Assembly: GCA_905178155.1 (NCBI GenBank) | Contig: CAJINV010000002.1 | Coordinates: 5,575,709-5,639,708 of the forward strand | Direction of reading: 5' to 3' | DNA from: Amoebophrya sp. A120 | Lineage: Eukaryota; Protista; Dinoflagellata | DNA: 64,000 nucleotides | Shown: positions 1-63,489 of the stretch, in pieces | Layout of the letters: each line of letters begins with the position of its first letter | Numbering within the stretch: position 1 is the first letter of the stretch | The notes under the pieces: generated by a model | Told to the model about the DNA's origin: nothing | Seen by the model: only the letters and a program-made list of their open reading frames with translations | Databases searched by the model: none | Program-made: the position numbers and the translations under genes

Positions 1-2400
1 GTATTCGCATAGAAATACAGCACCTGGAAGGGCCACTCAAGAACTTCTACGGATGTACTCTTAGTACTATCCGCAAGGCAAGTTCTTGCGTCGCGATCAC
101 GAAGAACTGAGTGCATGACTTCGACCCACCTGTCGTAGCTGCTCCTGCCTTAGCGTTGCAGTGCCGGTCCACGTGGAGCTGCACTTCCACCACTAGCACT
201 ACTTCAGTCCGCATGAATTATACAAATTCGAGAACGGCCGGGCAAGAACGCTCTGTTGACTTTTTACATTGTATACCTCGGTGGTCAAGCACGGCCGCTA
301 TCGTCTGATCCGTCGTACAGGTGGACCTGTTGCGACCAACGGCTGCAGGCTCAACAAGTGCTCCTTCCGCACCGTCTTCGCCTCGGCCCGTCCATGTCGC
401 GCTGCTAGAAGCTGCAACCTCTGGCCGCCGCGAAGAGAAAACATTCGCACGTAGCGCCAGGGCGAGGCTCTTCGGAGAGACCGTGCGACTTCTGCGTTGT
501 TCCTCCGGGTTGTAGTTGTATCTCTTACTTTCGGTGGTGTCGCGCGGAGACGTGGCAGGAAGAACGTCATCTCCCTCCGCTCCTGACCGCGCCAGACGGG
601 GGGGAAAATTAGACTGCTCGTTTGGTTGCTCACAACACCCGGGCCGACCCTGCGTTTTTGTCGCGCCGCTACTTGTAGGACCCGTACCCACCAAAGCGTC
701 TGAGATGGCCTCGAACAGCTCCTGGACACTGTCGGTGGGAGGCGCAACTGAGGATTCCTCCGTGGCAGCTTTTACGTTATTTTCACCGTCGAGGACAAAA
801 CTCCGACCAGGACCAGGAGCACGCTCCTCGTCATGCTCAGCTCTGCCGCTTTTACCACCGGTTCCGCTCCTTCCCCCACCAGCCGTGTTGAGGCAGTCCA
901 CCCGCGTGAACGCATTCGCTAGCAGGCCCAGATTCCGACTGTCCAGCGATGACACATGGTTTTCCTGGTCCTCTGACGATTTTATTCCCGTCCGGGAAGC
1001 AGGGTTCGCGGCGTCTTTTTTCACCCTCGCAGCGCACTTCCTGGCGAATTCAGACCAGAAACTGCTGGTGCTGCTTCCCCTTGGAGATGGTGCGCGTAGG
1101 GTTGCAGTGCTTGCGTCTCCTGCTCTCGCGGTTGGAGGGGCGCGCGACTGCGGCACCACCATGGCGCAACCAAAAGATGTTGAACTCGGGGGAACATTTT
1201 TCGGAGCGTAGTGAGACAAAGCGTTCGCGATGAAAGCCAGATCGGACACTGGCAAGCTATCGGCACATATCAAATGTAAAAATGTCTGGGTCTGGAAGAT
1301 TCTGAAACTTGTCATGCACGTTTTGCATGGGCCACGATGTCTGTGATGCATACCCTCGCATCACAGACTTTTTGAGGGCTTCGTGATACCTATTCCGCAT
1401 GACAAATGCCCTCTCCGCGTAGCCAAAATTGCATTCCCTTTGCTGGTCATGCAATACAGATTTTTTTAGAATCCAAATGCAGCATCACAAGTTCGGATTC
1501 TTCCAGACCCAGACATTTTTACACTTGATAGCACACTGCAGCACCCGGGTCTGAAGCTGGTCCACTATTGTGAGGAAAAACTATCTCAGAAGTCTCAACT
1601 TGTAATGCGAAACTTGTTCCTCGAGACAGTTTTTTCTCAAGCTCGACATGCGAGACAGTCCTCCTTCGTAAGTGTTTTTGCTTGTGTCGCACTTAGCACA
1701 GGTGAGCAAATTTGAATGGCTGAATCTGCAAAGGTTTGAGACTGAGACAATTTTTTCGTACGATATCCACGGAGAACGTTCGACGCCTAATGGCTGAGGG
1801 GTATGGAAAGAAAAGCGCTATTTGTTTCTGTCACTTTGTATTTTGCAGATGCCGCAGATGCAGCAGCAGCTTTTCGTTTTGCATAATAAATTTTTCTGGC
1901 AGCAAAATTGTACTGCAGAAATACGAGGGAAGGGTCACGTGTAAAGCTTCAGCTTTTTTGTATGCATTATTACGCATTAAAAACATTGTTTCATTGCAAA
2001 ATTGCCAATGAGTGCTCGTGACAAACTTATTTTGTCTGATAACAGGAGGAAGCTATCCGGGAGAAAAACTGTGTGAAGAAAAGTTCAAATTAAACAAATA
2101 TCACTTATCCTGCCAAGCGTCCAGTAGCAGTAGCTCAAGGCTCTTTATTTTGTTTGAGTCGCGATCAAGACAATGGAGAATTCTAATTGCGTTTGCGACA
2201 CACAATCTGCGAACAAAACGTTTCTGCTGTCGAACCGAACAAAAAAAATTGCGATGCTAGAGTACTGGAATTTACTATAACACAGTTTTTTCCTTGGATA
2301 GAAGGACGCTTGCTTGTCCATTGTCTGCATTACCGCTACTCGTCCGGGAAGCAAACGGCCATATTGGGCGAAGAAAGCTCGTCAGATTGTTTTGGAAAGA
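1..2400 (-). CDS. Spliced helical-repeat (HPR/RAP-like) putative RNA-binding protein; runs off window start, 5' end approximate
   Basis: Removing IEs 1566-1765 and 1268-1530 joins ...SAIRRRTFSVDQLQTRVLQCADSLPVSDLAFIANALSHY...; DLAFIANALS and NLGLLANAFT resemble alveolate HPR/RAP repeats. Confidence 0.5.
1268..1530. mobile_element. IE family A non-canonical intron (263 bp)
   Basis: TIR TATCAAATGTAAAAATGTCTGGGTCTGGAAGA / TCTTCCAGACCCAGACATTTTTACACTTGATA; DR GCACA; in-frame join. Confidence 0.92.
1566..1765. mobile_element. IE intron (200 bp), related to 57207-57400 and 63022-63220 in reverse orientation
   Basis: TATTGTGAGGAAAAA...TTTTTTCGTACGATA; DR TCCAC; in-frame join. Confidence 0.85.
2054..2300. 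mobile_element. IE family E-like, degenerate
   Basis: TATCCGGGAGAAAAACTGTG...CACAGTTTTTTCCTTGGATA; DR GAAGC/GAAGG. Confidence 0.7.
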
Positions 2401-3675
2401 GGCACAAACGCAAACCAAGCGACGCGGTTTTCCTTCGCTAGCCGATTGAAGCCGAGCCCGATCCGCCATAAGACGAACAGCTAAAAAAACTGCTGCAGCC
2501 GTCTACGCTGGCTCGGAGTCGGCCGCCCCCTGCCTGCATTCCTCCCCGACCGCTTCAAACCCCAAGTGACGTGGTACACAAAACGGGCTGGACAGGACAT
2601 GAACCTGATGGGCTTGCTGTGAGAGGGCTCCTGCTGATGTCATAATTCGCCGCATGCTGAGTCTGGATTGTCTCGTTTTGTCGATGTGGAGATGCAGCAG
2701 GAGGTACTACAAAAAATACAGGTTTTCACTTAGTCATAACGACCTCGCGTTCGCAGCCTACAGTTCCTATCAGGTGTCACAAGCAACAGAGACTGTGCTA
2801 CCAGCAGCCCCAGTAAGTCGTACGTGCAGCTGACAATCATACACAAGCTCGCGGGCTGCAACCAATAGTACGCGGATGAAAAAGGATGGCGCTTGATCTT
2901 CTGCACAACAGGCGAATGATCAACGTTTCGTCGACAAAGAAGATCCGCAATCGAACCTGACTACAGTTTCTAAAAACACAGTCTCCGTTCTGCTACACGA
3001 AGACGCATGATCATCGACATAATTCGTCAAGTGGCAATAAAGTACTAGTGATTTTCTAGATTGGTATACACGACGGAAAACAAAAAACACATGGCAGGAT
3101 GTTGAGGATCATTTTGAACTCAGCTCGCTGATGATCATCGTGGCGCAGATCCGGTTCAGAGAGAAGCGCAGGCGAGAGAGAACCTCGCCTCTTCCTGTAG
3201 ACGCAAGTTAGCGCTTGTCACGACCTGTGTCCAACACTAGCAGGTTTTCCATGACCCGTGAGGTCTGGAATGCGGAACCTAGCATGACAGACTCTGTGAG
3301 GTCTCTGTCCTGCCTATCCTGCATTAGAAACTCTCTCCCAACTTGGTCGAAAGTAGTGGACAGCTTTTGGCACTCATGCAACACAGACTTTTGCATGATT
3401 CGGATTTAGCATGACAAGTTGCATCACAACCCCAGCACTGATCAGCATCACAAATTTTCCGAGCTGACTAGCTCAAATTTGTGGCGCAGAGGAGCCCAAT
3501 AGCAGGCGGATCTGTTATGCAGAAGATGATACCTTGCACGCCTAGGCTCTGCATCAGAAAGGCTCATAGTCATAGTCCTTCCATGCAAGACAAAATGCTT
3601 TCATTTGCAAACTTTGCATGAGAAACAGAAAGTTTTGCAAAAAATTCCATGGTGCGGACATTTGTCACTGTCATA

Positions 3676-4366
3676 GCTGCAGCGATTACTCCGGCTGGTC
3701 AACTCGCTGTCCGACTGCACGGAGTTTCACGTGGCGAGCAAATTTCTGCGGATTCTGAACCTGTCCCACAAGTGCGGGGCGCGAGACTTGGAGCAGTTGC
3801 GGGAGGTTTTGCCCGCGGAAGTGCCAAAGTCCCGGCTGGATGTGCTGTTTCTCTGGCAGGACTATTTGAATAATTTGATGGCCATGTTGGTGCCCAGGTG
3901 CAAGAACTACGCGCGCACGCACGTGAAACTGAACGACCAGCAGGTATGGCGTTCTTAAACGTTACATTCTCAACTGTTACATGATTTGTCATGCGAAATT
4001 AGCATCAACATCCGATCCACACAGGGAAGCTACTTCGCATGACAAATTTTGGAAAGGCTAAACAGCACCTAATTTGTGCGGAATTTGTCATGCTAAAGGT
4101 GCAGCCTCCCTTCTTTGACTTTTGCCATTCTTGCATTACAGTTGAGAGTGTAACATTTGAGAACGCCATAGCAGGAGGTGCTGTCGCTGGAGATTCTTCT
4201 GTCGCTCCACCTCATCTCGCACCTTCTGCCCATGTTTTCCTACGCGAAGTACTACTTGGTCCACCTCCAGTGCCTCAATCTGGTTTTCTACCAGTTTTTC
4301 CGCCCGGCGATTGACAACTTCATCGAGTTCTTTACAATTCACGAACCGATTGATTCTCTAGTTTGA
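3676..4366 (+). CDS. 3' exons of a plus-strand hypothetical protein (upstream exons not resolved)
   Basis: LQRLLRLVNSL...KLNDQQ joins EVLSLEILL...IDSLV* after removal of IE 3945-4170. Confidence 0.65.
3945..4170. mobile_element. IE family H intron (226 bp)
   Basis: TIR TATGGCGTTCT..AACGTTACATTCTCAACTGT / ACAGTTGAGAGTGTAACATTTGAGAACGCCATA; DR GCAGG. Confidence 0.9.
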
Positions 4367-6301: not shown

Positions 6302-8700
6302 TTACGTTGCCCCACCTGCTGAGTCCGGTCGTGGTCTGCGATCAGCGAACATGGATTTCTCGTTGGTACAGCAACAGCTGCAGTGATGAAGCATAAAGTT
6401 TCGACAACACAGGTCCAAATTGCACCATTTAGAGCTCCAACATTCTTGGCAACGACAACGAGTAATATGAAAGCATTTACAGACTTTTGTCGACGCACAA
6501 GCCCGCCGCATTGGACAGCAGACGAAACAAAATACGACTAAAAAGGTGACAACTGAGAGGATGATTATACAAATAACGAGTACTATGGGGTCAGTCACCA
6601 CAGGAAACCCGGACGGAAAATCGTATACATCAAATTCGGGTACATATTTTGCGTGGGCGAGGGAGTCAAGCAAATACGCCACAAGTAGTCCCCCTATAAC
6701 GAGCTTAAAAAAGAACCACCCACAAAACTCAATATAACCATTATCCTGATCCTTGTTCTCTCGCTGATCCATGGTCGGACATTATTCTGCAGAAAAGCGC
6801 CCCTCCCTTGCCGTATGCCAAATTATTTGTGGCGCGTCTGTAGTTGCTCTGTTGCTGAGCCAGACAGTGAGGTGGTTTGTGAGACTTAAAGTCGGGAAGA
6901 CCACAGCAATCATGCGACTGCTCCGAAGGAGAAAAACAATCTTCTGCTGGCAACACGAGATCAATCAACGCCTGACAAGTAATTTCGAATACCACATGCG
7001 GTGGAGTAGTACCCTGTTCTGCAGCATAGACAGCAAAGCATGAAGCAAATATCGCCAAAGAAGCATCTGCACCACCTGCCGCACTTCCCACCTGCTGCTA
7101 CCGCACCTGCACCCCCTGCAGCAACTGCACCACCTACTGCTGCTGCATTATTTTTCGAGTCTCCCATGCATTCCGTACAGCACCCGTCATACCGATCCTC
7201 TTGAAAAGCCGTCCATGTCATTATATGGCTCAGACTAGAGAGAACCCCAGCTGGCGTTTTTAGAAGTGCACACTACGTCTGCGGTAGACGTAAGTTTGGC
7301 TTTGCTTTTGCCGGGAAAAAGCCGCAATTACCTTTGTGAGGCTGCATCTTCATCACAGAGCCGGCCTCTGCCTCTCGCTGCCCTAGGGTTTTGGTTCTGC
7401 CGGGGCGATGAATTTCCACACATCATTGCCTAAGCCTCGTCTCTGGACCAGCTTCAACACAAGGACAAAGCACATTCAGCTCCTGCAAATTATGTCGAGT
7501 TTTGATTTTCATGACAAGTATGCCGGGACGGACAAAGACGCCATAAAGAGGATAATCTTTGCAGCAGTTCCCCTCGTTGCAGCAGTTCCGCTTGCCGCAG
7601 CAGTTACACTTTGCGCAGCATTCATCCAGCCACGCGCATTTGCAGCACTCCCCATTTCCTTCGTTGTTTTTTTGCACCGGCAGATCGCGTCGCGCCGGGG
7701 TAACTGGGCCTACGCGATTCTCCATCGGCGGTCGTTGTCCGGGCGGCACCGCAGCTCCTTCAGCCGCCGAATAATCCTCCCCCCAATCCGCCCAATCCTC
7801 GGCGCGCTGCATGGGAGTGTCAAAATTGAGACCGCCAAAGTTGATATAACTTGTAATGCAGAAAATGGATGAAAGTTGTGACCCAGTTTCTAAGTGGCGC
7901 ATGACAAATTTGGGTAGAACCGAGATCCAGTTTGTCATGCTGTTTGGGTAAGGCATACGCCTTTTGTCATGCTACTTTAGCAGCTCAGTTTCTACCCCTC
8001 AACAGGCTTACAGTCTGCCTCACTTGCCTCCTCTGCAAGACAGGCACTCTGCGGGCTGAATTTTACGCATGACAAACTATTTCAACTGTGACGATTTCAA
8101 TCCTGACGCTTCCATACGCTGCACGTACCTGTCAAAGTACTTCACTTCTTCACGTTTCACTTTCCCTTTCTCCTTCATTGTCTCGACCCAGTTCCAGAGG
8201 CCCTCTGGCACGCCCTCCAGTCCGTTTTCGCGAATCCAATTCGCCCATGCCACTAGCGTCCATTATCCAACATCAAAAAAGTTCGTCACAATCACGCATT
8301 GGTATTTTTGCAAAACGTCGGACATGCGTACTTAAGAATGCATGTTCACATTGCAGCTATGCGTAATCTGCTTCCGACTTGTGGTTGTACTAGTCGTGCT
8401 TCTGCAATACAAGAGAAAGCTGCTTTAGCAGAAAGAGGTCCTCTCGTGTCCGGCAAAAAACAAGTGTGACAAACACAAACTTTTTTCTTTTCATAAATAT
8501 CCCCTGTACTTCGGTTTGGGTCGCCGTTTCCTTTTCCCGCTGCTCCTCCGCTTATCCGGTCTCTTCTCGCGTCCCCCAGTTTTGGCCGGGAAAGATCGGT
8601 CCCCCATCTCCCCAAATAATTCAACCTTTCTTCATTGCAGTCTATGTCATCTGGGTCTCGATTTATTTGATGTGATGTCGTAGGACGTGCAGCACAGCAA
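6302..8700 (-). CDS. Spliced Cys-rich membrane protein (boundaries approximate; may belong to a larger gene)
   Basis: ORFs 6302-6772, 6961-7221 and 7423-7956 contain CC-rich tracts and hydrophobic TM segments; IE 7810-8116 removal joins KYFDRYVQ|RAEDWADW. Confidence 0.5.
7810..8116. mobile_element. IE family F intron (307 bp)
   Basis: Ends CATGGGAGTGTCAAAATTG / TTCAATCCTGACGCTTCCATA, like 51421-51827; DR CGCTG; in-frame join. Confidence 0.85.
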
Positions 8701-9128: not shown

Positions 9129-9404
9129 TATCAAATGCAAATGTGTCTGAGTCTGGAAGACTGCAGGTGTTTGTCATGCAGATTTTGGATGCCCCGCAAG
9201 GACTGAATCTGAAATGCTGGGCTTAGCATCACAGGCGGTGTAAAAGCTTTCCAATTCATATATGCCGCATGATGAGAAATACCGGTATAGTGTAGCCAAA
9301 AGTGGGCAGCTTGTGCTACCCGCGCCAGACAAATTTTGTGTAATCTACAGGACGTGCTGTCACAAATTGCCATCTTCCAGACCCAGACATATTTGCAGTG
9401 GGTA
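9129..9404. mobile_element. Degenerate IE family A
   Basis: TATCAAATGCAAATGTGTCTGAGTCTGGAAGA...CTTCCAGACCCAGACATATTTGCAGTGGGTA; DR decayed. Confidence 0.7.
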
Positions 9405-9860
9405 GAGATGGGGGCCGCGGTTTTCTTCTTGATAATTTTCGATCTTCTCTCTGGATTTTTCCCCAATATCACACAGAAAAAAAGCCAGTGTATCATGCAT
9501 GCAACGAATAAACGGATGAGTAGATGATCTCTCTTGCTCTTCAAGGGGATGATCCCCATACATAGCATGTTGTAACTGCTTTAGCTAGTAAGTACGCAAG
9601 AGGACCGACCTACCTGTGCTGACAAAGCTAGACTTTTTCCCTGGCGTAATACTTTTCTTCCCTTCTGAAGGTTGTGGCTTGCCGTATCTGTCGCGCAGGT
9701 GCTGTATGATAACGTTTTAACAAATTTCAACCTTCTTCTGGTCCGCATCCGCGAACGCGGTCGTAGCCATGTTAACTCTTTCACGCTGAAGTACTACATG
9801 CGTCCCAGAAAGTAGAGCGCAGCGTTTTTTGGCTGATGAAGACAGAACTAGGGCTAGGAA

Positions 9861-48300: not shown

Positions 48301-51300
48301 AAAAAGTCCACCAGCAACTTCCAGTAGTAGTTCCGGCTGTATTCGTCCACGAACTGCGGCTTCTGGTAGGACTGAGGCGCATCAAATGCAAAAATGTCTG
48401 GGTCTGGAAGGATGCAACTTGTAATGCTACCTCCTTTGGACTCCACATAAAAGCTGTATTGCATGAACAGCAAAAGAGGCGTAAGCTGTGATACGCGGAG
48501 AGGGCATTTCTCATGCGGTATGAGCATCAGAAAGCCTTCGCAAAATCTCTGATGCTAGGGCATGCATCACAGACCTCATGGGTCATGCAAAATCTGCATG
48601 ACAAACTCCTGCATTCTTCCAGACCCAGACATTTTTGCAATCCATAAGGCGCAACCAGGTACAAATTTGGGTTCTCCAAATACGAAAAACTGCTGTCAAA
48701 CTCCGGTACCGTGTCCAGGTTGCTCACGGCTTGCGAAACGATCGCCTCTCCCCCCGCGCTCACCCCGGGAAGAAACGACCCGCTCAGGGGTTTCACGTAG
48801 GTGCTGTAATAGCACGGAAGGAGGACGAAGAGGTACAAACTTTCCACGAAACGCAGAAACCTCGTGGGAAAGGGGCTGTACGGACTGCGCTCTTTCAGCG
48901 GAGAATTTTCCGGATCCAGCAGCGGGTGTAGTAGCTTCGGGATCTGGGTGCTTGACGTCGGGGTTCCGAATCCCAGAGAAAAACGCTACTTGTTGTGATG
49001 CAAAAACAAATACACCACAAAAAAATCTGCCATGGTTGAGCGCAGAGGATGCCTGCTAATTGTTTTTTTCTGTGCATTTATTTTTGCATTACAAATGTGG
49101 TATTCTAGCTTTTTTCTCTGGGATATTCTGACCAGCAAACCGGAGGTGAAGGAGAGTTTCACTTGGTAAAAAGCGTCCCCTCTGTTGCTTCCTCCGTTTT
49201 TAGAAGTTTTCCCCCCTCGTCCCGCAACCAGAATCAAATGGTCCAGAAAATTGAAGCCCGCGGTTTTCAGCTCAAACTCTTCTTTCAAGAAAAACCGCGT
49301 CGCTAGGAAGTCCGCGCACTCCAAGATCTTCTTTGTCACGAGTTGCAGGTCCCCCAGGTGGGGGATGGTCGTGGGCAGCTGATCTAGAACACCGTCGAGC
49401 TGCTGGTGCAGGTTCCCCTCATTCGACGCCGTTTTGAAGTACTATCATGTGGAAATAAAACGTCCCCACCCAAGATGTCTCATTCGTACCTGCATGCCCC
49501 AAACTCTTTTTCATGCACAGCCCCAACTACATCATGCGGAGCATTTTGATTTTCCAACGCTGTCAGGAACTTTGTCACACTCCAGTGAGACAAATGTGGG
49601 CATCAATTTGTGACGCTCCCGCACCAGCTAACTACGACTACACTGTCATGCGCCACAGCTAAAACTACTCGTTGAGTTGTGGAGAAGCATGCCCATCTTG
49701 ACTCTCGCGCGTGGCCCCGTCTTCAAATACACGGGATAAGTACTCGGGCAGCTTCATCCACTCTTCCCCGTCGTGGTTCCATTCCTCTGCGACGATGAAG
49801 ATTTCTTCGCTACCCGAACTACTGCTGCTCTCACTTCCGGGAGCTGCAGTAGTCCCGGCGACATTTCTGCCGCTCTCGTCGAAGTTGTTCAGTGTCGGGC
49901 ATCAAAATGAAAAGCCCCCCCTTCCCATATCAAGATGGAAATCTGTGACGTGGGATTTTAATTGTTGTACTTGTGTTCTTGCATTAGAGGACTTCACGCA
50001 GATCAAAAGCCTAGGCCGGGATCTTTTAGTCTAGGTACCTAGCATGGCAGACGTCTGCCCTGTGGGCGGACGTCTACTAGCGTGGCAGCGATACAAATCG
50101 CCTGCACAACGAACGCGGCGAAATCTCTGAATTTGCGTTCCTTCGTGCAAGACATGGCCACAAATCTGCATGACGAATTTCCAGACGGATGCGCTTTCGC
50201 TCAATATGGGGACCACGAGGGAAAATTTTTCCTTGTAATATCGGGAACAAGAGCTTCTCGAACAGCTGCACGCCCTGCGCCAGACTTCCGGGGCGGATCC
50301 TCCCCGCGAAGTAGCACTTTTGGACAAACTCCGGGGTGGCATTGATGTTGACCGCGGCGAACTTGTCCTGGAGAAACCGACACGTATCCCTGAGGTAATC
50401 CTCGACTTCCGCCTCGACGAAGTGGAAGTCGTGGTTCCTGTCAACACCAGTTATACTGCCGGCGCTGGACGAAGATAACAGCACCCCTCCAGCTCGTCCT
50501 GCCTCTTCTAAACTTGGTGTAGTCCTTGTTCCACTGCTTCTCCCGCTTGCCCGCTTCATTTTGATGGCGCAAGGGAAGGAGGGCGAGGAGTCCTCTGAGC
50601 CGGTCGCAGATGTTGAGAAGCCCTGTGCAAAAGTTCCAGCTTTTCCTCCCGCTCCTGCCTGCCCTGCGACCGCTCGGGTGGAAATCTTCCCCGTACACTT
50701 GCCCTTGAATACCAGCCAATACAGCTGGCTCGCCACCTTCACGGCGTCGGGACTCTGGGATCGCAGGAGAACGCTGATCGGCTGCGTCCCGAGGAAATGC
50801 AGCTTGTTGCTTTCGGTCACAAGTTTCACGCCGATCGGTGCGGGTTTAGAATCGGCGGGTCGTGAAGGAGCACCAGCAGCTTCAGATAGTCCTGTGATTC
50901 CGCTGCGAGGCGGAAGATCCTGCGCGTCTACTTCCTCACCACCCGTGGAGCTGTACAAAATTCCATTACCAGGTGCAATCTGCAGACTTTTCGCTTGCTG
51001 GATGATCCTTTGCCGGCTAGGATTGGTGTGTAGGTTTTCGTCCCCGTCAGTAGAAGTAGAATCTTCACCGTTTTGATCGTAGATGCCCTTGCTAGTTCTT
51101 TTCCCAGGAGCATCTGCTGCCCCCTTGCGGGAAACGAAGCCACGATGAAGATGACCGTCATCATCACGACCCAAAGTTCTGGCTTGCGTGCTGGTGCTGG
51201 CGCTTAGATAGGGTAAGTTGGACGCCGCCGGTAGGGAGACTGGCAGTGGTGCCCCTGTTGCTGGAAAGTCGCTGGAGGTAGGCGGCACTGCGTCGGCTGT

Positions 51301-54258
51301 GTCTCTCGCTGTAGTTGTGCCTCCTCCTGCTGCTGCGGCGCTTGTTCCCGACGTTGTACCACTACTCCTACTACTTCCCATGTCTGGAACCACCTCCAGC
51401 ATGCTTGATGGCAGCGACTCTATGGATGTGTCAGAGTTGAAATCGACAAAGTTGAAATAATTTGTCATGCTAAACCGACCGAAACCACTACACAACCTGT
51501 ATAGGGAAAAATAGTACTACACCAACCCAGTTTCACAAAGGGAATAAATAGCACTACACAACCTGTAAGGGAAGGTAAACGCACTACACAAACCCAGTTT
51601 CCAAGTGGCGCATGACAAATTTCGGCGGTCCCTAAATCCAGTTTGTCATGCTGTTTAGGCAAAGACGAGCGATTCTCTCATGCTACTTTAGCAGCTCGAG
51701 CTTTAACCCCAAACAGGCTTACAATAGGCCTCACTTGCCTGCTCTGCAACACACGTACCGCGGGCCATGCATTTTATGCATTGCAAATTATTTCAACTTT
51801 GACGATTTCAAACCTGACGCTTCCATAGACTCGCCCCGGTTATCATTTGATCCGTCGACGATGAAAGAACCAAGAGCACTGCTCTCCTCAGCCTCGTTGT
51901 TGGTCTCCTCGGGGTTGATCCTTCCCTCCTCGTGAAATGCTCCCGGCAGGTCGTCCACGACCTGGTCGCTGTCCTGCATCTCTGCCACGCTCGAGGTGCT
52001 ATCCCCCTGTTCATCGACGTACAACGTGGAGTCTTTGTCCTCTTCGACGTCCTGAAGGTCATTTTCATTTTCTCTCGTCTGCAGAACCGAAGAGGATTCG
52101 CTGAGGAAACCGGGTTTGTTATCCTGAGTAAAAACGTACCCACACCATAGTCAAGATGGGAAATCGGCTAGACAAATCCACAAGTTTTGGCTGTTTTACA
52201 TGACAAATTTGGATTCGTAGTGTAGTGCTGTTTGAGCTAGCTCAGCAGCATCACATATCTAGCATACCATGCTGATTGGAGCATGACAAATTGCAAAAAA
52301 CCACTAGAAAATGCTTCTCATGAGGCTCCGCATGGGAAACATTTTCAGCATGCAGATTTGCATTACAACTCTGGTGTGGGTACGTTTTTACTCAGGATAT
52401 TTGTTTTCCCAGGACAACTCGTCGTCCGCCGGGAGTTCCTCGACCGTGTGGCGATGCAGCTCCTCCTATCAAAATGAAAAATAAATCCCCCCTCCCCATA
52501 TCAAAAGGGAAGTCTGTGGCGCTGTATTTGCGTAGTACACAAATCAGTCTTGTATTGCAGTAGGGCACTGCAGGCAGATACAAAGCCCGGAAAGGAGTGG
52601 CCTGAGGTAGGCACTTAGCATGGCAGACGTCTGCCCCATTGGCGCAGCAGCATTACAAATCGCCTGCGAAATGCGGCGGAAGCTCTGGCTTTGATCTTTT
52701 GCAAAACAGACTCGATTTGTGACCACAAATCAGCATCACAAATTTTGAAAAGCACGCCTTTTCGATACTATGGGGAGAACGGATTTTTCCTCACAATACC
52801 TCCTCGTCCGCGGTACTCCTCTGATGGAAATCAGAGTTGTCGTCCTCGTCTGCCACCTCGTCGCCCCCTTCTCGCGCCTCCAAATCCGGAATAATTTCGC
52901 CAAACTTCATATCCTGAGTAAAAACGTACCCACGCCAGAGTTGTAATGCAGACTCGCAAAGACAGGAAGACTTGTAATGCGCATCCCCATGAGAGCCATT
53001 TCCAATCGTGTTTTGGAATTTGTGATGCTGTGAACAGGATGAGCAGCTGGATTTGTGATGCGGCTGCACTTGCTAACCTGCACTACACTGCAGCGCTCAA
53101 CTTGTCATGCGTGACTCACAAAGCTCCTAGGTTTGTGTTGCAAAATCCTCATCCTAACTTTTTTTTTGTATGAGATCCACTATAAACCATAATCAAAGAG
53201 TAGTAGTGCAGATCCAGCTGTTCAGGGAGGATTAAGAATGGATTCTGCTCTGCTCCTCCTCCACCGCGGTTCATTGTGATCAGCATGCGTCTACGGGACT
53301 TGTACAACAACGCTACAGGGACATCTACAGGGCCATCTACAAATCCTCATCCTAACTCTGGTGTGGGTACGTTTTTACTCAGGATACTTCAGCTGTGGCT
53401 CGTCGGGGAATTCCAGTGCGCCGTAGATCGTGGGCCTATTACAATGAAAAATGCCCCCACCCCCGAACTTGGGAGCATTTGTATTGCAAACCTTTTCAAA
53501 TGAAACATTCGTTCTCTTGCATCTATCAGCATCACAGATTTCAAATCGTGAATTATAGCAAAAATCTGTATTGCAAAAGATCCCAGCAAGAGCGGCGCTT
53601 ATCATGCAAGCGATGCAACACACACCTAGACTCTGCATCAGAAAGGTTCATCTTCATACTCGTTTCATGCATGACAAAAAGTTTTCACTTGGAAACTTTG
53701 CATACACAAATTTTTGCAACTTTGGGGGTGGGGGCATTTTTCCGCGCGATAGGGCCCGTCGCGCGCGGGCGCGCTGACTTCGGGGACGTGCTTGCTCGTT
53801 TTCTGCTTTCGGGTTTCAAACACGGAGGAGGCCGGGACGGAGGTGTCGTCCGGAATAATGTGCAGGGGGTGGTGTCGTACTTCCGGCTCCTTTTCAAGAA
53901 CCACGACAGACGACAGCGCGCGACCCCCCTGTCGTGCCGCGACCGAGGTAGCATCTTGCGCAATATCCTCGGTGTTTCCAACATTTTTGCTAGTATCTGT
54001 TGACGGCAGGCTTTCTGACCTTGCGTGTTCATCGTCTACGGAAGTAGAAGACGCAGGCCCTGCACGACCTTCGGACAAACCTCCTTCGCCGGGCGGGATT
54101 TGCTGTTCCTTTCCGCTGCTGCTTATTCTGGCAGAGGTCAGTAGAACGTTCGAGAGGTAAAAATCATTTTTCCAGGTGCCGCCCAAGAACATGTGCACGA
54201 CCAACAGGAAGCAGCGGAAACAAAACCCATTGCTCCGCCTCGTAGAAGAAAACCTCAT
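36349..54258 (-). CDS. Very large (~3,950 aa) hypothetical protein, signal-like N-terminus and multi-pass TM region near C-terminus, split by 21 IEs
   Basis: Span 17,910 nt minus 21 IEs plus one DR each (6,054 nt by my count) = 11,856 nt, divisible by 3; joins checked e.g. IDNF|YVLF, LHR|IQVL, TGDG|STSP, TDQR|DNLL, LLVR|TPTS. Confidence 0.75.
38324..38577. mobile_element. IE family A (254 bp)
   Basis: DR GCAAG. Confidence 0.9.
38628..38838. mobile_element. IE family E (211 bp)
   Basis: DR TAAAC/TGAAC. Confidence 0.87.
39103..39365. mobile_element. IE family A (263 bp)
   Basis: DR GAACC. Confidence 0.92.
39550..39796. mobile_element. IE family A (247 bp)
   Basis: TIR TATGAATTGCAAATATG; DR GCTGG. 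Confidence 0.9.
40919..41227. mobile_element. IE family D (309 bp), reverse orientation to 15021-15329
   Basis: DR AAAGT; in-frame join. Confidence 0.92.
42312..42569. mobile_element. IE family J (258 bp)
   Basis: Perfect 18-bp TIR TATCAGAGTGCACAACTC; DR TTCCG/TTCTG; in-frame join. Confidence 0.88.
44036..44297. mobile_element. IE family A (262 bp)
   Basis: DR CTTCC/CTTCA. Confidence 0.9.
44354..44678. mobile_element. IE family B (325 bp)
   Basis: DR TCCCG. Confidence 0.92.
46392..46670. mobile_element. IE family C (279 bp), reverse orientation to 14508-14793
   Basis: DR ACCAT. Confidence 0.92.
47332..47540. mobile_element. IE family E (209 bp)
   Basis: DR CGTAG. Confidence 0.92.
47691..47952. 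mobile_element. IE family A (262 bp), reverse orientation to 1268-1530
   Basis: DR ACGCT. Confidence 0.92.
48098..48295. mobile_element. Fold-back IE (198 bp)
   Basis: TATGCCTTGCAAAAG...CTTTTGCAGAGAGTA; DR TGTGA; central perfect palindrome. Confidence 0.85.
48380..48646. mobile_element. IE family A (267 bp)
   Basis: DR AGGCG. Confidence 0.9.
48969..49125. mobile_element. IE family G (157 bp)
   Basis: Similar to 33105-33278; DR TTCCG/TTCTG. Confidence 0.85.
49443..49738. mobile_element. Degenerate IE family C (296 bp)
   Basis: DR AGTAC. Confidence 0.8.
49900..50240. mobile_element. IE family B (341 bp)
   Basis: DR TCGGG. Confidence 0.88.
51421..51827. mobile_element. IE family F (407 bp)
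   Basis: ~40-bp TIR TATGGA.G.GTCAG..TTGAAATCG.CAAAGTTGAAATAATTTG; DR GACTC. Confidence 0.92.
52120..52399. mobile_element. IE family C (280 bp)
   Basis: DR TTTGT. Confidence 0.92.
52467..52798. mobile_element. IE family B (332 bp)
   Basis: DR CCTCC. Confidence 0.9.
52910..53386. mobile_element. IE family C (477 bp) carrying a nested retroposed insert
   Basis: DR CTTCA; 477-181-17 = 279 bp, the family-C length. Confidence 0.9.
53160..53340 (-). mobile_element. Retroposed poly(A)-tailed insert (181 bp)
   Basis: Starts with a T-tract; flanked by 17-bp duplication AAATCCTCATCCTAACT (53143-53159, 53341-53357). Confidence 0.8.
53437..53751. mobile_element. IE family D (315 bp)
   Basis: DR GGGCC. 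Confidence 0.92.
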
Positions 54259-56175
54259 TTTCGTCACACGGCGCAACATTCAGCCCTGCTTCTTCAAGAA
54301 TCTTCGGTTGTACGTCGGATTTTCGGTCTTCATTTTGCTGTACTGAACATTCGACGACACACAACCCGTCGTGCTACTACTCGTTGTATATCTTTGGTCA
54401 ATAAATGCGGAAGTTCTAGATCAAAAAGGAAGACTACCTCGCGGCAATAACACGCACTCTTCGACACCAGATCACAGTCACTCTCCAGCACACAAATAAA
54501 ACGAGCACCTTTGCGGCAAACTAGCTCTCACGTCGACAAGCTCCGTCAGTCTTTGGAGTACTAACAGCGGTCATTACGCGTTGAGCATGCAGCTTTAAGG
54601 ACCTTGCTCGCGTCATCGCAGTTGCAAAAAAGGGCGGCACTAAAAAAGGCAGCGCGAAAAGACAGCGCAAAAGAGCAAACGCCGCCGTTTTCCAAATTTG
54701 GATACCACTACATATGGTTATGAGACTGAAAAAAACGAAGGAAACGCGATAAAAAGTCGAGGGGATATAGCTCTCAGCTTCTTTGCCTAGTTACGCTCGT
54801 CTCTCGCTGTGGCCTTGCTTCAGAAAAACGAATCGCTCCGCGAAAAGAATACGCAAAATCGTCGTGGCGTTAGAACAGCAAGACGAATCGCCGTGAAAAT
54901 AGACCAGGAAGACGATCTGTACAACTCTGAAATAATATCAACAATACTAGGAGGTGGATCCGGTAGTACGAAACGAAGTCCTTGCACTTCTTTCACGACC
55001 TTGCTTAGTTTCTGTTCTCAACAAGATAGAACAACGACGAAGATCAAAACAAACGGCGCACTTTTTGACGCACGTGTATTCTTTTGCGTTTTTCTAATAT
55101 GCGTTTCCCATATGTATTTTTTTGTGTTTTTCTCATATGTAATTTTTTTTCATATGTATTTTTTTTTTTGTGTTTTTGCAATTTGTGAAATATGTTAGCA
55201 AATTCCAACAGGTCCGACAAGATGTTCACACTGATCCTAAGCTTGCAATTTCGATAAAACTGCAACGCCCCTTTGACAGTTTCACTATCCTTCGTCTTTT
55301 CTCCGGATGATGAAGCTCTGAAGTCGTTTCTCTGATGAAGGCGCTGAAGCTACTTGATACCCGATAACTGAATTGATAAACTTTCATGGAACAATGTACA
55401 TTAAACTTTCGAAAAAAAGTATTGCTGCTGCTGTTGCTGTTTAAGAACCAAACTCGTACGAAGAAAAGAAAATTACTCAGTACAGATTCCCTAAAAAACC
55501 CGAACAAGAAAAACTTCAAAACCCATTAACAGATTGAACCGCATCGCCCCGCTCTGGTACCGCTGTGCCTGAAAGTGATGGATCATTTGGGTTGTTCGTA
55601 AGCAGGACAACTGCGTGAGTACACGACATAACAAATTACTTTCCACGAAGGCAAAAAACTAGCAGTCACAGCAATCACATCATAGCACTAGGTACGCTAC
55701 GAAAGATGGATCTTGTCAAGCAACGCTGCTAATAATGGGCGTTGTCAAGCACTGGGCACATGAAGGAGGCGCAAACTGTCTGCAGCACTCATATCCTTTG
55801 CTGATCAGTACTTAACGCCGTCACGTTTTCTCACTTTGAGGGAGCGAGTTCGACGAATTCGCGCACCGTGCGGCAACCGACCCCGGTAGTGCTAAGGGTC
55901 GGCCGCTCTTCTTAATACATCCCCTACGGTGCAAAGCACCTAATTGTACCGCGAGTGCTCAAGGAAAAATCCGAGAACTTGATTTGTCGCTAGCGCCTTT
56001 TTGGAACCACGCAGCATCATGCTTAGCGTCTCGCATGCCGCTCTCGCTCTACCCGTGGTCTTGCAGAAAAGCCATTAATCCAAAGCACGCTTTTGCTGCT
56101 GTGACTGCTAATCATGCGCAGAAACTGGGTATGTAAAGCAAGGTAGAAAAGTCACGGAGTACCAGTTCCAAAACA

Positions 56176-57693
56176 CTAGCGCTCTGCAGCAACGGCACCT
56201 ACTTCAGCAAGGGGAGCAAGGTGCGTGGCCAAATTCACGTTGTTCGCAGTCTCCGCAGTGCATATCAAGTGCAAATACGTCTGAGTCTGGATGAGTCAAC
56301 GTGTTTACCATGCAGATTCCGGATGCCCCGCCAGGTCTGGAATGCCGGGGATCATCATAGATTATGTAAGGACTTTGCAATGCACATTCCGCATGCGAAC
56401 TACCGTTTCAGCCTGGCCGAGCATGGGCATCTTGTGCTACCTCCGCAGGACAAATAATTTTTGCCAGATATACAGGACTCAGTCGCAAGGTTCAGACATA
56501 TTTGCAACGCATATCTTCGCTCAACTCGCCCGATACCTCGGTCATGTCCTCTAGATCCGATAGACTCTCAGTCTCAGCAGTCTCGGCCTCGCTCGCCTCG
56601 GCCTCGCTCGCCTCGTCACCCCAAACTAGTCTCCTCGCATGTTCCCCTTCGTGGTATTGATCCATATATCTAAGCCAGACCTCCAGGTCCACTTCCGGAT
56701 CGCTTTTTCCGGCAGCCTCCAACTCTTGTTTCCAAGTCTTGAAAGTCCGCCAGCCCTCGTCCGTATGATATGCCCACTGCTTAAATTCCGTATGCTGATC
56801 CGGAAAACGTGATTGGGAGGTAGACAATGCACTTGAAAATTTGTTAGTCAAGTGAAAATACGTCTGAGTCTGGATGAGTCCACGTGTTTGCCATGCAGAT
56901 TTTAAATGCCTCGCCAGGTCTGCAAAGCCGGGGATAGCAGTTACTTATCATTTTTGTAAGGACTTTGCAATGCATATTCCGCCTGAGACTTACCGCTTCA
57001 GCATGACCGAAAATGGGCATCCTGTGCTACCTCCGAAAGACAAACTTTTGCCCGATCTAGAGGACGCAGACACGAGTTCTAACCTTGAAGACCAAGACAT
57101 ATTTGCAGCGCATACTTTCCTGCGGGGTCACGGTCCTTTCCTTATAAACCAAGGCCTTCACGCGCCACAACCAGTTGAGTAGGCTCCACCAATCCCCGTT
57201 GTAATCTATGCAAGGAAAAAGCTTTCTCCGTCTCAAACCTTTGCAGACACAGCAGTCATGAGTTTGAGTGTGATGCGTCGGACACAAGAGAAAACAACAC
57301 GGATGAAAGCCGCCTTTCTTGCATGTGCAGCGTGACAAAGAAGTGTCTCAAGGATTGCCCGTATTACAAGTTGAGACTGAGACTGATTTTTCTCGTGATA
57401 TGATCCTCGTCATCGTCATCATCATCATCGTCAGATTTTTTGGAACCGCCAGATGCTGTACTCATCTTCCCGGTCTTCGATTTCCGGCTGGTTTTCGATT
57501 TTTTCCCGCTCTTCTTGGCTTCCACCTTGGTCGCTCCGCCTTTCTTCCGGTCATGCTGAATGAAACCCGTCGGAACCTCCTCGCTTCCCTCCCAGGAGTG
57601 TGTTGCTGTGCCGGCCTTCTTCTGCAAGGCGGACACGACCGGCCCCCCCCTCCCGGGGGCAGCAACGGCGACAAGCACGATCTTCTTCATCAT
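56176..57693 (-). CDS. Putative secreted protein, paralogue 1 (4 exons, 3 IE introns)
   Basis: MMKKIVLVAVAAPG signal-like start; exons 57693-57401, ~57206-57115, ~56840-56514 and ~56257-56176 join in frame after IE removal. Confidence 0.7.
56263..56513. mobile_element. IE A-like (251 bp), DR decayed
   Basis: TATCAAGTGCAAATACGTCTGAGTCTGGA...GACATATTTGCAACGCATA. Confidence 0.8.
56846..57114. mobile_element. IE A-like (~269 bp), DR decayed
   Basis: Same subfamily as 56263-56513. Confidence 0.78.
57207..57400. mobile_element. IE (194 bp)
   Basis: TATGCAAGGAAAAAG...GATTTTTCTCGTGATA; DR TAATC/TGATC. Confidence 0.85.
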
Positions 57694-61138: not shown

Positions 61139-63489
61139 CTAGAAAGCTGCGGCAACGGCACCTTCAACAATGGGAGCAAGGTGCGTGGCCAAATTCACGT
61201 TGTTCACAGTGTCCGCAGTGCATATCAAGTGCAAATACGTCTGAGTCTGGATGAGTCAACGTGTTCACCATGCAGATTCTGGATGCCCCGCCAGGTCTGG
61301 AATGCCGGGGATTATCATAGCAGAGAATTTTATAAGGTTTCAGATTCAATACGAGGCGACCAATACGAGCAATCGGACCAATACGAACCCGATACGAGCG
61401 CGGGCGGCGGCTCCTGCCTCCCCCCGTCGCCGATACACCCTACCCGTGCTTCCGTTTGAAAATATGTGGCCCCACGCCTGATGCTGCGATCTTCATAGGG
61501 CCTTCCCCTCTATTAAGCTGACACAGTACGGGCGCGGGACATGATGCGCGGCCGGGTTCTCGTCCCCTCTGACGGGGACGACTAAATCTCGAGAGAGAGG
61601 CCCCCCTACCTCATCTAACTAAGCTTGTTACTAGCCTGCTGAGCCCAAGCATGGAACCAGCTCGGGCGCCGGTGAATAGCGGCGATTCTTGACTCTGTCC
61701 GGCCCCTGGAGCTCATGCGGCAAAGCATAAGAGTCAGGGGCGCGATAGCAGCAGCGCTGCTTTGCGGGCGTATTTGAAAGCAGTGACGTTGCCAACAAGC
61801 GTCGGCCCGCCAGTTCTCATTCAATTATTAGTTTTTGTTTACCAAAAGGAAAAGCCGCGCCGCAGGCGCGGCGCCGAGTTTTTTTCTCAAAGTGGCGCGG
61901 CTACTTACTTTCAAAAGTTTCAAAGCGGCGCTCAAAGCGGCGCGCCGTCGTTTTTCGCGACGCCGTCGCGGTATACCAACCAATTGGGGCGGGCGGCTGG
62001 GCGGACCATCTTGGGGGTCCTGGCGCCACGTCAATACGAGGCGACCAATGCGAGCAATGAGACCAATACGATTTCACTCGATTTCTGTGTCGGTCTAATA
62101 CGACTCGTATTGTTTATAAAATTCTCTGTCATAGATTTTGTAAGGACTTTGCAATGCATATTCCGCATGAAAATTACCGCTTCAGCATGGCCGAGAATGG
62201 GCATCTTGTGCTACGAACGCAGGACAAATAATTTTTGCCAGATATACAGGACTCAGTCGCAAGATTCAAACATATTTGCAACGCATATCTTCGCCCACCC
62301 CGCCCGATACCTCGGCCACGTCCTCTAGATCCGATAGACTCGTCTCAGACTCAGTCTCAGCAGTCTCGCTCCAAATAGCCTCGTCATCAGGGTACTTGTC
62401 CCGCATCCACCTAGCCTCGCGATCAGCTGTATCAGGGTGATTTTCCCGCAGCCACAACTGCCAGATCTTCCACCGCTCTTCCTCCACGCTGGCATCACGA
62501 GACAATGCTCCTTCTCTTCGCCAGCGCATGATAGCTTCTCTGCCATCTCCCCCCTGCCTGAATCTATGACATTCGTCAAACAGGTCGGGGTGTCTATGTT
62601 CCGCGAGTTCCAATTCACGTGCCAACTTGTTGTTCAATTCATTTGATATCCAAAGTGAAAATACGTCTGGGTCTGGATGAGTCCACGTGTTTACCATGCA
62701 GATTTTGGATGCCTCGCCAGGTCTGGATTGCCGGGGATAGTACTTATCATAGATTTTGTAAGGATTTTGCGAATGCATATTCCGCCTGAGACGTACCGCT
62801 TCAGCATGACCGAAAATGGGCGTCTCGTGCTACCTCCAAAGGACAAATTTTTCCCCGATCTACGGGACGAAGACACAAGTCGCAACCTTAAAGACCAAGA
62901 CATATTTGCAACGCATACTTTCGTGTCCGGGAAGCCAACCTGGGAGCGAGGATCGGATTTTTCTCCAGGCCCAACCCAGCAAGTTCCATGCTTGGTTCCA
63001 CCAATTATCCGCACCGTAATCTATGCAAGGAAAAAGCTTTCTCCGTCTCAAACCTTTGCAGACACAGCAGTCATGAGTTTGAGTGAAGTGTGATGCGTCA
63101 GACACAAGAGAAAACAACACGGATGAAAGCCGCCTTTCTTGCATGTGCAGCGTGACAAAGAAGTGTCTCAAGGAGCGCCCGCATTACAAGTTGAGACTGA
63201 GACAGATTTTTCTCGTGATATGATCCTCGTCAGATTTGTTGGAACCGCCAGATGTTGTACTCATCTTCCCGGTCTTCGATTTGCGGCTGGTTTTCGATTT
63301 TTTCCCGCTTTTCTTGGCCTCCACCTTTGTCGCTCCGCCTTTCTTCCGGTCATGCTGAATGAAACCGGTCGGCACCTCCTCGCTTCCCTCCCAGGAGTGT
63401 GTTGCTGTGCCGGCCTTCTTCTGCAGGGCGGACACGACCGCCCCCCCCCCGGGGGCAGCAAAGGCGATCAGCGCGATCTTCTTCATCAT
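61139..63489 (-). CDS. Putative secreted protein, paralogue 2 (4 exons, 3 IE introns)
   Basis: MMKKIALIAFAAPG; same intron positions (61223-62287, 62647-62917, 63022-63220) as paralogue 1. Confidence 0.7.
61223..62287. mobile_element. IE A-like intron, 251 bp plus nested 808-bp element and 6-bp TSD
   Basis: Paralogous to 56263-56513; 1065-814 = 251. Confidence 0.85.
61321..62128. mobile_element. 808-bp non-autonomous TIR element (MITE-like)
   Basis: Perfect 15-bp TIR CAGAGAATTTTATAA; 6-bp TSD TCATAG; empty site at ~56355-56360. Confidence 0.92.
62647..62917. mobile_element. IE A-like (271 bp)
   Basis: Paralogue of 56846-57114. Confidence 0.8.
63022..63220. mobile_element. IE (199 bp)
   Basis: Paralogue of 57207-57400; DR TAATC/TGATC. 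Confidence 0.85.

Follow-up and report, generated by a model that had tools for sequence, protein, structure and literature searches.

Non-canonical introns make up roughly two thirds of the total in Amoebophrya sp. A120, and their removal has been a standing question since 2021. The introner elements reported from this genome have inverted ends of the form TAT, seven nucleotides, AAA, measure about 240 nt, belong to many families, are bordered by direct repeats of 3-5 bp and lie in co-oriented genes, and their removal is supported by RNA (Farhat et al., 2021; PMC7789003). In the parts of that account used here, splice sites are described as variable relative to the hairpin, or their position as unknown, and no internal motif is described. 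Most spliceosome parts are given there as present in A120, with U1 not detected. Nine of the nine predominant non-canonical splice pairs in its Table S4 begin N-T, a pattern that depends on aligner placement.

The inserts in the window, 64,000 nt of Amoebophrya sp. A120 (contig CAJINV010000002.1; all positions are relative to the window), are introner elements of this A120 type, real and already known. The preliminary description had identified them as such, and rightly, since their TAT-N7-AAA motif equals the A120 motif in the cited parts of PMC7789003. A strict scan, which required the same 5-bp repeat on both sides, TAT-N7-AAA at the start, ATA at the end and inverted ends, returned 24 elements in the window and none in each of 100 local pair-shuffles; with relaxed scans and hand curation we counted 60 candidates, which bears out the earlier figure of about 50 transposon-like elements in coding exons. 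The other structural claims held up as well. Sizes had been put at mostly 157-480 bp, and 57 of the 60 measure 157-477 bp (the remaining three 858, 1065 and 1210 bp); the described TAT-N7-AAA and ATA termini correspond to 52 candidates with TAT-N7-AAA at one or both ends; and the estimate of about ten families compares with 8-10 multi-copy families in the window by BLAST grouping, plus 10-13 singletons. All five direct repeats named (GCACA, CGAAC, GGTTG, AAAGT, TTTGT) are present. Perfect 5-bp repeats border 36 of the 60, and 17 more match at 3-4 of 5 positions (13 at 4/5, four at 3/5); the other seven are decayed copies that match at 2/5 or fewer. The scans selected for 5-bp repeats, and the 5-bp length is supported mainly by transcript contigs that skip 5 nt beyond the element. 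Relatives of the elements occur in 140 metagenome loci, with identity of up to 96%.

The features are listed below. Fractions give the match between flanking repeats; "skipped" means that the element plus 5 nt is missing from a transcript contig; register 4 denotes a cut after repeat base 4, the intron being repeat base 5, the element and repeat bases 1-4.

1268..1530 (-): element, family A, 5/5; scan, frame
1566..1765 (-): element, 5/5; scan, frame
2054..2300 (.): element, 4/5; scan
3945..4170 (+): element in plus-strand ORF, repeat GCAGG gives GT...CAG exactly at register 4; scan, frame
7810..8116 (-): element, 5/5, 3' terminus mutated; scan
9129..9404 (.): decayed family A copy, ends approximate; scan
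9467..9651 (.): decayed copy, ends approximate; scan
10398..11607 (-): 1,210-bp TAT...ATA element, 200-bp inverted repeats, 5/5, no Pfam match, no TGTVWTGC; scan
11935..12277 (-): element, 3/5; scan
12298..12467 (-): element, 3/5, GT-AG at register 4; scan
12821..20871 (-): host ORF, 1,545 codons after removing 10 elements plus 5 nt each; frame, transcript contig (run X8 record 14)
13083..13344 (-): element, family A, 5/5; skipped
13538..13821 (-): element, 4/5, registers 3-5; skipped
14011..14334 (-): element, 3/5, registers 3-4 only, register-1 GT-AG unused; skipped
14508..14793 (-): element, family B, 5/5, orientation opposite to 21710 and 25166; skipped
15021..15329 (-): element, 5/5, orientation opposite to 40919; skipped
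15412..15623 (-): element, 4/5, registers 4-5 only; skipped
16097..16407 (-): element, 5/5; skipped (adjacent contig pieces)
16987..17254 (-): element, 4/5, 3' terminus mutated, registers 1-5; skipped
18040..18897 (-): 858-bp element, TTAGG...CCTAA ends, 78-bp inverted repeats, 5/5; frame needs removal, contig arithmetic implies it
19035..19286 (-): element, family A, 5/5; removal implied by contig arithmetic
21181..26072 (-): Surp-domain gene, five elements and four GT-AG introns; transcript contigs, Pfam
21710..21991 (-): element, family B, 5/5; skipped, 4/4 runs
22396-22573, 22765-22962, 23896-24137, 24434-24643 (-): GT-AG introns of the Surp-domain gene, all donors GTAC
23119..23441 (-): element, 5/5; skipped, 4/4 runs
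23511..23725 (-): element, 5/5; skipped, 4/4 runs
24814..25075 (-): element, family A, 5/5; skipped, 4/4 runs
25166..25447 (-): element, family B, 3/5, registers 3-5, register-1 GT-AG unused; skipped, 4/4 runs
30945..31206 (-): element, 4/5; scan
31287..31494 (-): element, 4/5; scan
32720..32982 (-): element, family A, 4/5; scan
33105..33278 (-): element, 5/5; scan
33313..33565 (-): element, 5/5; scan
33665..33865 (-): element, 5/5; scan
33921..34191 (-): decayed family B copy, 2/5; scan
34249..34571 (-): element, 5/5; scan
36352..54279 (-): host ORF, 3,958 codons after removing 21 elements plus 5 nt each; frame, transcript contig over 38000-46386
38324..38577 (-): element, 5/5; contig arithmetic over four elements, 483 nt expected and seen
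38628..38838 (-): element, 4/5; same four-element arithmetic (483 nt)
39103..39365 (-): element, 5/5; same four-element arithmetic (483 nt)
39550..39796 (-): element, 5/5; same four-element arithmetic (483 nt)
40919..41227 (-): element, 5/5, 3' terminus mutated; skipped (adjacent contig pieces)
42312..42569 (-): element, 4/5, no strict TGTVWTGC, registers 2-5; skipped in run X3, whole in a run X1 contig
44036..44297 (-): element, 4/5, registers 1-5 (inferred); removal implied by arithmetic (51 nt)
44354..44678 (-): element, 5/5; removal implied by arithmetic
46392..46670 (-): element, family B, 5/5; scan, frame
47332..47540 (-): element, 5/5; scan, frame
47691..47952 (-): element, family A, 5/5; scan, frame
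48098..48295 (-): element, 5/5, 5' end TAC; scan
48380..48646 (-): element, 5/5, 3' terminus mutated; scan
48969..49125 (-): element, 4/5, 3' terminus mutated; scan
49443..49738 (-): element, 5/5; scan
49900..50240 (-): element, 5/5, 3' terminus mutated; scan
51421..51827 (-): element, 5/5; scan
52120..52399 (-): element, family B, 5/5; scan, frame
52467..52798 (-): element, 5/5, GT-AG at register 4; scan
52910..53386 (-): element, family B with extra sequence, 5/5; scan
53437..53751 (-): element, 5/5; scan, frame
56263..56513 (.): decayed family A copy, no repeat; scan
56845..57114 (-): decayed family A copy; scan
57207..57400 (-): element, 4/5; scan
61223..62287 (.): decayed family A copy with nested 808-bp insertion; scan
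62647..62917 (-): decayed family A copy; scan
63022..63220 (-): element, 4/5; scan

Precise removal, as claimed earlier, is borne out by the transcript contigs: an element plus 5 nt is missing at 23 of the 36 elements compared (15 seen directly, eight by length arithmetic), and both element orientations are removed (e.g. family B at 14508 against 21710 and 25166, or 15021 against 40919). All informative transcript runs come from one study, and their labelling as RNA is a guess; the contigs that skip elements also skip the four GT-AG introns of the Surp-domain gene, which is likely the splicing factor SF3A1/Prp21. The raw-read runs X10 and X11 matched the window with 14 and 97 reads only. Reading frames agree, given that removal of 4 or 6 nt instead of 5 at any of 31 junctions (21 and 10 in the two long ORFs) collapses the frame. 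The statement that the frame is restored at every junction checked therefore stands for these 31 junctions, but "every" goes beyond what can be demonstrated, as the frame carries no information at decayed copies or at elements close to canonical introns.

The elements are probably cut at one fixed register, after repeat base 4. Seven imperfect repeats (13538, 14011, 15412, 16987, 25166, 42312 and 44036) restrict the cut to the registers listed above, and only register 4 is common to all seven; the two tight bounds, 14011 and 15412, both derive from a single contig in a single run. If one register applies throughout, the intron consists of repeat base 5, the element and repeat bases 1-4; it starts N-U-A and ends four arbitrary bases beyond the inverted repeat. 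At register 4, U+2 and A+3 are found in 51 of 51 TAT-type elements in the window and in 274 of 274 from the metagenome loci, and this start matches positions +2/+3 of the genome's GUAC donors (GTAC in four of four canonical donors). At register 4 the 18040 element has U+2 only, with A-U-U as its start, yet it seems to be removed. Conservation is also one-sided: terminal bases 1-2 show no deviation at the transcript 5' end against six at the 3' end in the 51 window elements, and none against 11 in the 274 oriented metagenome elements, i.e. 0 against 17 overall, with strand calls correct in 39 of 39 cases in the window and at 8 of 8 Pfam-identified genes. A canonical U2 intron with a GT (or GC/GA) donor and AG acceptor was rejected as the general solution: as had been claimed for most junctions, GT-AG can be placed at few, namely six of the 50 examined in the window and 16 of the 274 metagenome elements (eight of them at register 4). 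In the window, register 4 yields GT-AG at 3945, 12298 and 52467.

The families also share an internal motif. Elements totalling 15,178 nt contain TGTVWTGC 166 times, against once in 16,108 nt of exon; the motif faces inward 521 times against 145 outward, and follows element orientation rather than transcript direction. Inward-facing copies are spaced 31-33 bp, about three helical turns, and this spacing is common to families that BLAST does not link; strict sites number none in 42312, one in 18040 and none in 10398. These are likely to be transposase sites. Five frames of the two long elements gave no Pfam match, and among 224 ORFs from the metagenome loci, a tiny share of the genome, the 80 longest gave no transposase family. 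The preliminary description had called the transposase unidentified; none was found here either, but an integrase-like lead is already in print, as A120 family 38 is listed with a 5-bp target-site duplication (TSD) and TA/TA termini and has integrase-like homology (PMC12130899, among 40 of its 58 A120 rows). The same paper, in the part drawn on here, describes that family as without typical Ginger termini and TSDs.

We favour, at a probability of roughly 55%, the reading that the elements are non-autonomous DNA transposons, taken out of the RNA by an altered form of the ordinary spliceosome, probably at a single fixed register. A DDE transposase of integrase-like type, supplied in trans, would bind the inward-facing TGTVWTGC pairs spaced 31-33 bp and insert the element in either orientation into almost any site, with a 5-bp stagger. 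The element is kept in run X1 contigs and missing from spliced contigs, and the intron, if the single register is general, starts N-U-A and ends in any dinucleotide. The spliceosome would then read U+2/A+3, its requirements for G+1 and AG having been lost, and the acceptor would be set 4 nt past the inverted-repeat end, probably via the folded ends. A start signal resembling U+2/A+3 of ordinary donors, together with the apparently fixed cut, makes an altered ordinary splicing machine likely. The N-T starts in Table S4 and the spliceosome parts present in A120 are in keeping with this. Two null results count against this explanation, as a normal spliceosome would predict otherwise: among the 274 metagenome elements neither G at +1 (82) nor AG at the intron end (25) is enriched, and mismatched repeat base 5 shows no drift towards G (4 upstream against 5 downstream). 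Also counting against it are the start of the 18040 element, the single contig behind the tight register bounds, the lack of a G-U excess in the inverted repeats (below) and the negative transposase searches. A bolder version is tentative: A120 might splice these introns in a mode without U1, blind to the dinucleotides at both intron ends, in which U+2/A+3 alone is read and the acceptor is set by a distance of 4 nt from the inverted-repeat end. Any 5-bp-duplicating transposon whose inverted ends start with T would then become a clean intron whichever way it points, and a single integrase-like transposase that reads the phased TGTVWTGC might have spread most families.

Removal could instead be the work of a separate, non-spliceosomal RNA system, in which a structure-specific endonuclease and a ligase, of the kind suspected for the nonconventional introns of euglenids, cut at the base of the paired inverted repeats. 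We consider this unlikely, even if no base is required at +1, -2 or -1, elements leave in either orientation, A120 is reported without a detected U1 (PMC7789003, in part), and euglenid introns with terminal inverted repeats (TIRs) and TSDs are reported to leave as circles, not lariats (PMC11282704, in part). Predicted folds lie well below those of shuffles in all 17 of the removed elements tested (z -2.1 to -14) and not in the four canonical introns, but elements are removed even where the terminal pairs are predicted to be open (24814) or weak (13538 and 40919). Moreover, the inverted repeats, read on the transcript strand, carry no surplus of G-U over A-C pairs (183 against 194), which leaves selection on an RNA hairpin unsupported. 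The invariant 5' U-A equals +2/+3 of the canonical donor and is not mirrored at the 3' end, and register 4 is a true GT-AG where the target permits. Alternatively, the marking might lie in the DNA: a protein of transposase origin, sitting on the element ends or on TGTVWTGC, might position the spliceosome during transcription, with RNA pairing unneeded. A motif phased at about three helical turns across BLAST-unlinked families, and inverted repeats without strand-specific pairing bias, would suit such marking; it is nonetheless improbable, given that 42312 (no strict site) and 18040 (one) are both removed, that the motif tracks the element and not the transcript, and that no such protein was found.

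A spliceosome with a sliding register, picking the most canonical-looking sites (GT, GC or GA donors; AG acceptors) within each repeat, would fit the variable splice sites of Farhat et al. (PMC7789003, in the cited part), and the contigs allow the register-3 placements at 14011, with a GC donor, and at 25166, with GA-AG. However, the GT-AG on offer at register 1 of these same two elements is ruled out by the contigs, 15412 allows only TT-GC or TA-CT, and no register offers GT-AG at 44 of the 50 junctions in the window or in 258 of the 274 metagenome elements, which makes sliding quite improbable. The preliminary description viewed removal as a precise reversal of transposition, either on RNA or conceivably on DNA as for ciliate IESs. 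The product does fit, as it equals the pre-insertion site, and the elements have DNA-type ends and phased motifs; the mechanism does not, since the element plus 5 nt is lost even between mismatched repeats and the cut lies asymmetrically relative to the direction of transcription. A run X1 contig covers 41199-44131, including the whole 42312 element, with no other letters, and further run X1 contigs pass from exon into element ends, although this comparison took in 15 of more than 1,600 joints, leaving room for rare empty-site DNA. Bases 1-4 of the upstream repeat copy are retained in 7 of 7 cases, and which terminus is conserved depends on the direction of transcription; a symmetric DNA reaction would predict neither. 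Given that the element-less contigs also lack the GT-AG introns and that the cut is asymmetric, RNA splicing is most likely, and DNA excision before transcription very improbable.

With a fixed register, both ends of each excised intron become exactly predictable, a basis on which an altered spliceosome could be told apart from a new enzyme. It also suggests that many annotated A120 splice-site types are placement artefacts inside the repeat, and the shared phased motif could serve as bait for the missing transposase. If true, a spliceosome needing neither G+1 nor AG would widen the known limits of splicing chemistry.

The portions of the published A120 introner accounts cited here contain no description that we found of a fixed register, an invariant 5' U-A or a shared phased motif. 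Compared with Farhat et al. (2021; PMC7789003, in part), one register fits all informative junctions here, U-A is invariant at the 5' end, TGTVWTGC is phased across families and an 858-bp TTAGG-ended element is apparently removed. Ginger/TDD transposons duplicate 4-5 bp of target; the 5 bp found here are as in TDD-4 and TDD-5 (PMC2836005, in part), whereas the termini read TAT instead of the TGTNR of Ginger and no element examined here carries a transposase ORF. Euglenid nonconventional introns share TIR-paired ends, TSD-like repeats, non-canonical junctions and offset pairing near the ends (PMC11282704, in part). Their CAG/CTG pairing lies at +4..6 and -8..-6 (from +4/-6), whereas here the inverted repeat starts from +2/-5 with TAT/ATA and the donor keeps U+2/A+3, and euglenid-type end pairing was rejected for these elements. 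The non-canonical introns of Fritillaria borealis prefer AG-AC/AG-AT ends, in a system with U1 kept and U2AF duplicated, whereas here the last two bases are free and U1 is undetected in A120; they share the transposon origin, TIRs and TSDs and are removed by a modified U2 spliceosome (PMC13326754, PMC11282704, both in part), which by analogy would make Fritillaria the best precedent for the mechanism that we favour.

In the window a strict pattern scan recovered 24 introner-like elements, against zero in every one of 100 local shuffles. Relaxed pattern scans and manual curation of the window brought the number of candidates to 60, in which the flanking repeat is a perfect 5-bp one (36), matches at 3-4 of 5 bases (17) or is decayed (7). 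Nearly all candidates (57/60) measure 157-477 bp, and they group into 8-10 multi-copy families, the rest being singletons. When each element is deleted together with 5 nt, an ORF of 3,958 codons spans 21 elements and another of 1,545 codons spans 10; deleting 4 or 6 nt instead at any single junction of these two ORFs makes the frame collapse. Scan and restored frames thus bear out the preliminary description of the elements as about 50 introns with terminal inverted repeats and 5-bp direct repeats that lack GT-AG. The window elements match the definition of A120 non-canonical introns in the available text of Farhat et al. (2021; PMC7789003), which gives 29,850 repeated non-canonical introns, an inverted repeat of TAT, 7 variable bases and at least three A, and direct repeats of 3-5 nt. 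The same text treats where splicing falls with respect to the hairpin as unknown or variable, and reports U1 as undetected and no transposase in A120. The elements and their removal are already published. Three features described below, namely the register of the cut, the directional conservation and a phased internal motif, were not found in the available text of PMC7789003, PMC12130899, PMC11282704 and PMC12005148, or by literature searches outside subscription journals.

Partial sequences resembling family A, with indistinct ends, lie outside the 60 at 3240-3640 and 5755-6028. The regions 54950-58330 and 59400-64000 are local duplicates (~78-89% identity), with a small gene and its elements included in the copy. 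A decayed element encloses a nested 808-bp insertion (61321-62128) whose ends read CAGAG...CTCTG and whose duplication is 6 bp long (TCATAG); it is of a different transposon class and is missing from the paralogous copy at 56263-56513.

Transcripts were compared with the window at 12800-27200, using contigs of sequencing runs X3-X5 and X8 (two samples of one study), and at 38000-54200, using contigs or reads of runs X1, X3, X10 and X11 at 90% likeness; raw reads of X10 and X11 (14 and 97 mapped, mostly on repeats) were left out. X3-X5 and X8 carry no RNA label on record and were taken as RNA since GT-AG introns are skipped: the four GT-AG introns of a Surp-domain gene are skipped in the same contigs as elements, and these contigs therefore derive from spliced RNA. 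Among the joints listed, 15 of 36 elements are skipped by exactly the element plus 5 nt, in a single joint or in adjacent pieces. For eight further elements removal is implied by lengths that agree exactly between expectation and contig (483, 132 and 51 nt). The other 13, all among the 21 elements of 38000-54200, have no joint among those listed, where repeat joints are abundant, and neither support nor contradict removal. Contigs of X1, which is perhaps the window's own source and not independent, retain elements, one contig covering the whole element that starts at 42312. We regard removal at the RNA level as very likely. The Surp-domain gene (21181-26072) likely encodes the U2 snRNP protein SF3A1/Prp21, and its expression needs five elements removed from the gene itself.

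Perfect repeats mask the cut site, whereas mismatched repeats expose it. Counting the register as the number of repeat bases, in transcript direction, after which the cut falls, seven junctions are informative.

Informative junctions, named by element start, with the cut registers that each allows
Junction 13538: registers 3-5, from a transcript contig
Junction 14011: registers 3-4, from a transcript contig (X8)
Junction 15412: registers 4-5, from a transcript contig (X8)
Junction 16987: registers 1-5, from a transcript contig
Junction 25166: registers 3-5, from a transcript contig
Junction 42312: registers 2-5, from a transcript contig
Junction 44036: registers 1-5, inferred

Register 4 alone is compatible with all seven, the tight bounds (14011 and 15412) both coming from a single X8 contig. 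The intron then consists of repeat base 5, the element and repeat bases 1-4; where a minus-strand element spans a-b, the intron runs from a-4 to b+1. GT-AG placements at register 1 are available at 14011 and 25166 but excluded, and GT-AG arises at register 4 in 3945, 12298 and 52467. One single register probably holds for all elements. Since removal is precise despite mismatched repeats, it is apparently the ends of the element, and not repeat identity, that fix the cut. Polarising 49 imperfect repeats by codon usage brought out no usable signal.

Among metagenome contigs, a pattern scan yielded 140 loci (515 kb) with 388 unique elements, compared with 0 in shuffled controls. Genes for the RNA polymerase largest subunit (L054:1140-5103), an SNF2 helicase (L009:3891-6353) and a KN17-like protein (L025:4364-5218) are also interrupted by or adjoin elements there. 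A codon model, correct at 39/39 window junctions and for 8/8 elements in Pfam-identified genes, assigned the transcript strand for 274 locus elements, and the 114 without a call were dropped before asymmetry was counted. Terminal bases 1-2 depart from TA in none of the 274 at the 5' end and in 11 at the 3' end, and among 51 window elements in 0 versus 6, giving a pooled 0 versus 17 (two-sided binomial ~1.5e-5). The two bases correspond, at register 4, to intron +2/+3 and agree with the GTAC donors of 4/4 canonical introns. In the available part of PMC7789003, all nine predominant A120 non-canonical pairs of Table S4 begin N-T and the A25 pairs begin TT, which is consistent with this donor, aligner placement affecting both. 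The TT(A) starts published for A25 suggest that its donor, too, is N-U-A. The +1 base is free (AT 88, GT 82, CT 59, TT 45 in the 274 locus elements at register 4), as is the intron end, with AG in 25/274. Elements are present and removed in both orientations, some families being biased one way (27:12, 11:3). No 5'/3' asymmetry was found at positions 4-20 of the inverted repeat, which leaves a role of the 3'-proximal T-run as a pyrimidine tract unsupported. The A at intron -7 changed once, versus six times at the mirror position (p 0.125), weakly suggesting a branch point.

Relative to pair-shuffles, 17/17 of the removed elements that were tested fold much lower (z -2.1 to -14), as against 0/4 canonical introns. 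Nonetheless, the transcript strand of the stems shows no preference for G-U over A-C (183 versus 194) and three elements that are still removed have terminal pairs predicted to be weak or open, leaving the idea of the hairpin as an acceptor ruler without selective support. A bulge-helix-bulge, the mechanism of tRNA endonuclease, was dropped because pairing between direct repeats is impossible when their sequence is arbitrary.

Elements contain the motif TGT[ACG][AT]TGC 166 times in 15,178 nt; exons (16,108 nt) and canonical introns (828 nt) hold one copy each, and shuffles 2.8 on average. Its usual distance from an element end, in the 274 locus elements, is 33-34 or 41-43 and 64-65 or 72-75 nt; it faces inward 521 times versus 145 outward and is most commonly spaced by 31, 32 or 33 bp, family copies not being independent in these counts. 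Because the motif tracks element orientation and is missing from the removed element 42312, it reads as a putative DNA-level transposase site. Tn7 and Mu ends carry multiple sites. No transposase was found in the two long window elements or in the 80 longest of 224 ORFs and the long candidates of the metagenome loci, and the inverted-repeat patterns had no match among viral contigs. Three long TIR-bounded candidates in the loci were rejected: those in L073 and L052 are host-gene stretches lying between separate elements, and the longest frame of the one in L054 does not exceed 86 codons. The best lead for the mobiliser is A120 family 38, for which the available text of Gozashti et al. (2025; PMC12130899) gives integrase-like homology, a 5-bp TSD and TA/TA termini.

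Some elements are unusual. Sited among A120-type elements, an 858-bp element at 18040-18897 is bounded by TTAGG...CCTAA, with inverted repeats of 78 bp, and is apparently removed from the transcript; its start agrees with the motif of TTA plus two purines that is in print for strain A25. The 1,210-bp TAT...ATA element at 10398-11607 has 200-bp inverted repeats, whose pattern had no match among metagenome contigs, and lacks the TGTVWTGC site. It encloses an inner palindrome (10958-11058) and, at 10589-10912, a frame of 108 codons that looks like a gene but has no Pfam match, and may represent host sequence that was captured. At 8626-8921, 9129-9404, 9467-9651 and 11935-12467 lie decayed elements whose repeats are eroded; several begin with GT at register 4, 12298 being GT-AG, and may be ageing into canonical introns.

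The most likely explanation, with a probability of about 0.55, is that an integrase-like transposase inserts MITE-like elements, which an adapted U2-type spliceosome then splices out; this spliceosome would retain U+2/A+3 and give up G+1 and AG, with the acceptor placed 4 nt beyond the inverted repeat. Alternatively, a separate RNA enzyme could remove them, as suspected in euglenids, which we consider possible but doubtful. It is unlikely that splice sites are marked at the DNA level, and marginally less likely still that the register slides. Excision from DNA, which the preliminary description had entertained beside removal on RNA, is very improbable: X1 contigs hold elements in place, 42312 whole, though the window itself possibly comes from X1, and the contigs without elements come from spliced RNA. 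For a spliceosome adapted to such introns there is a precedent in Fritillaria, whose spliceosome is able to adapt to transposon introns according to the available text of PMC13326754 and of the review PMC11282704.
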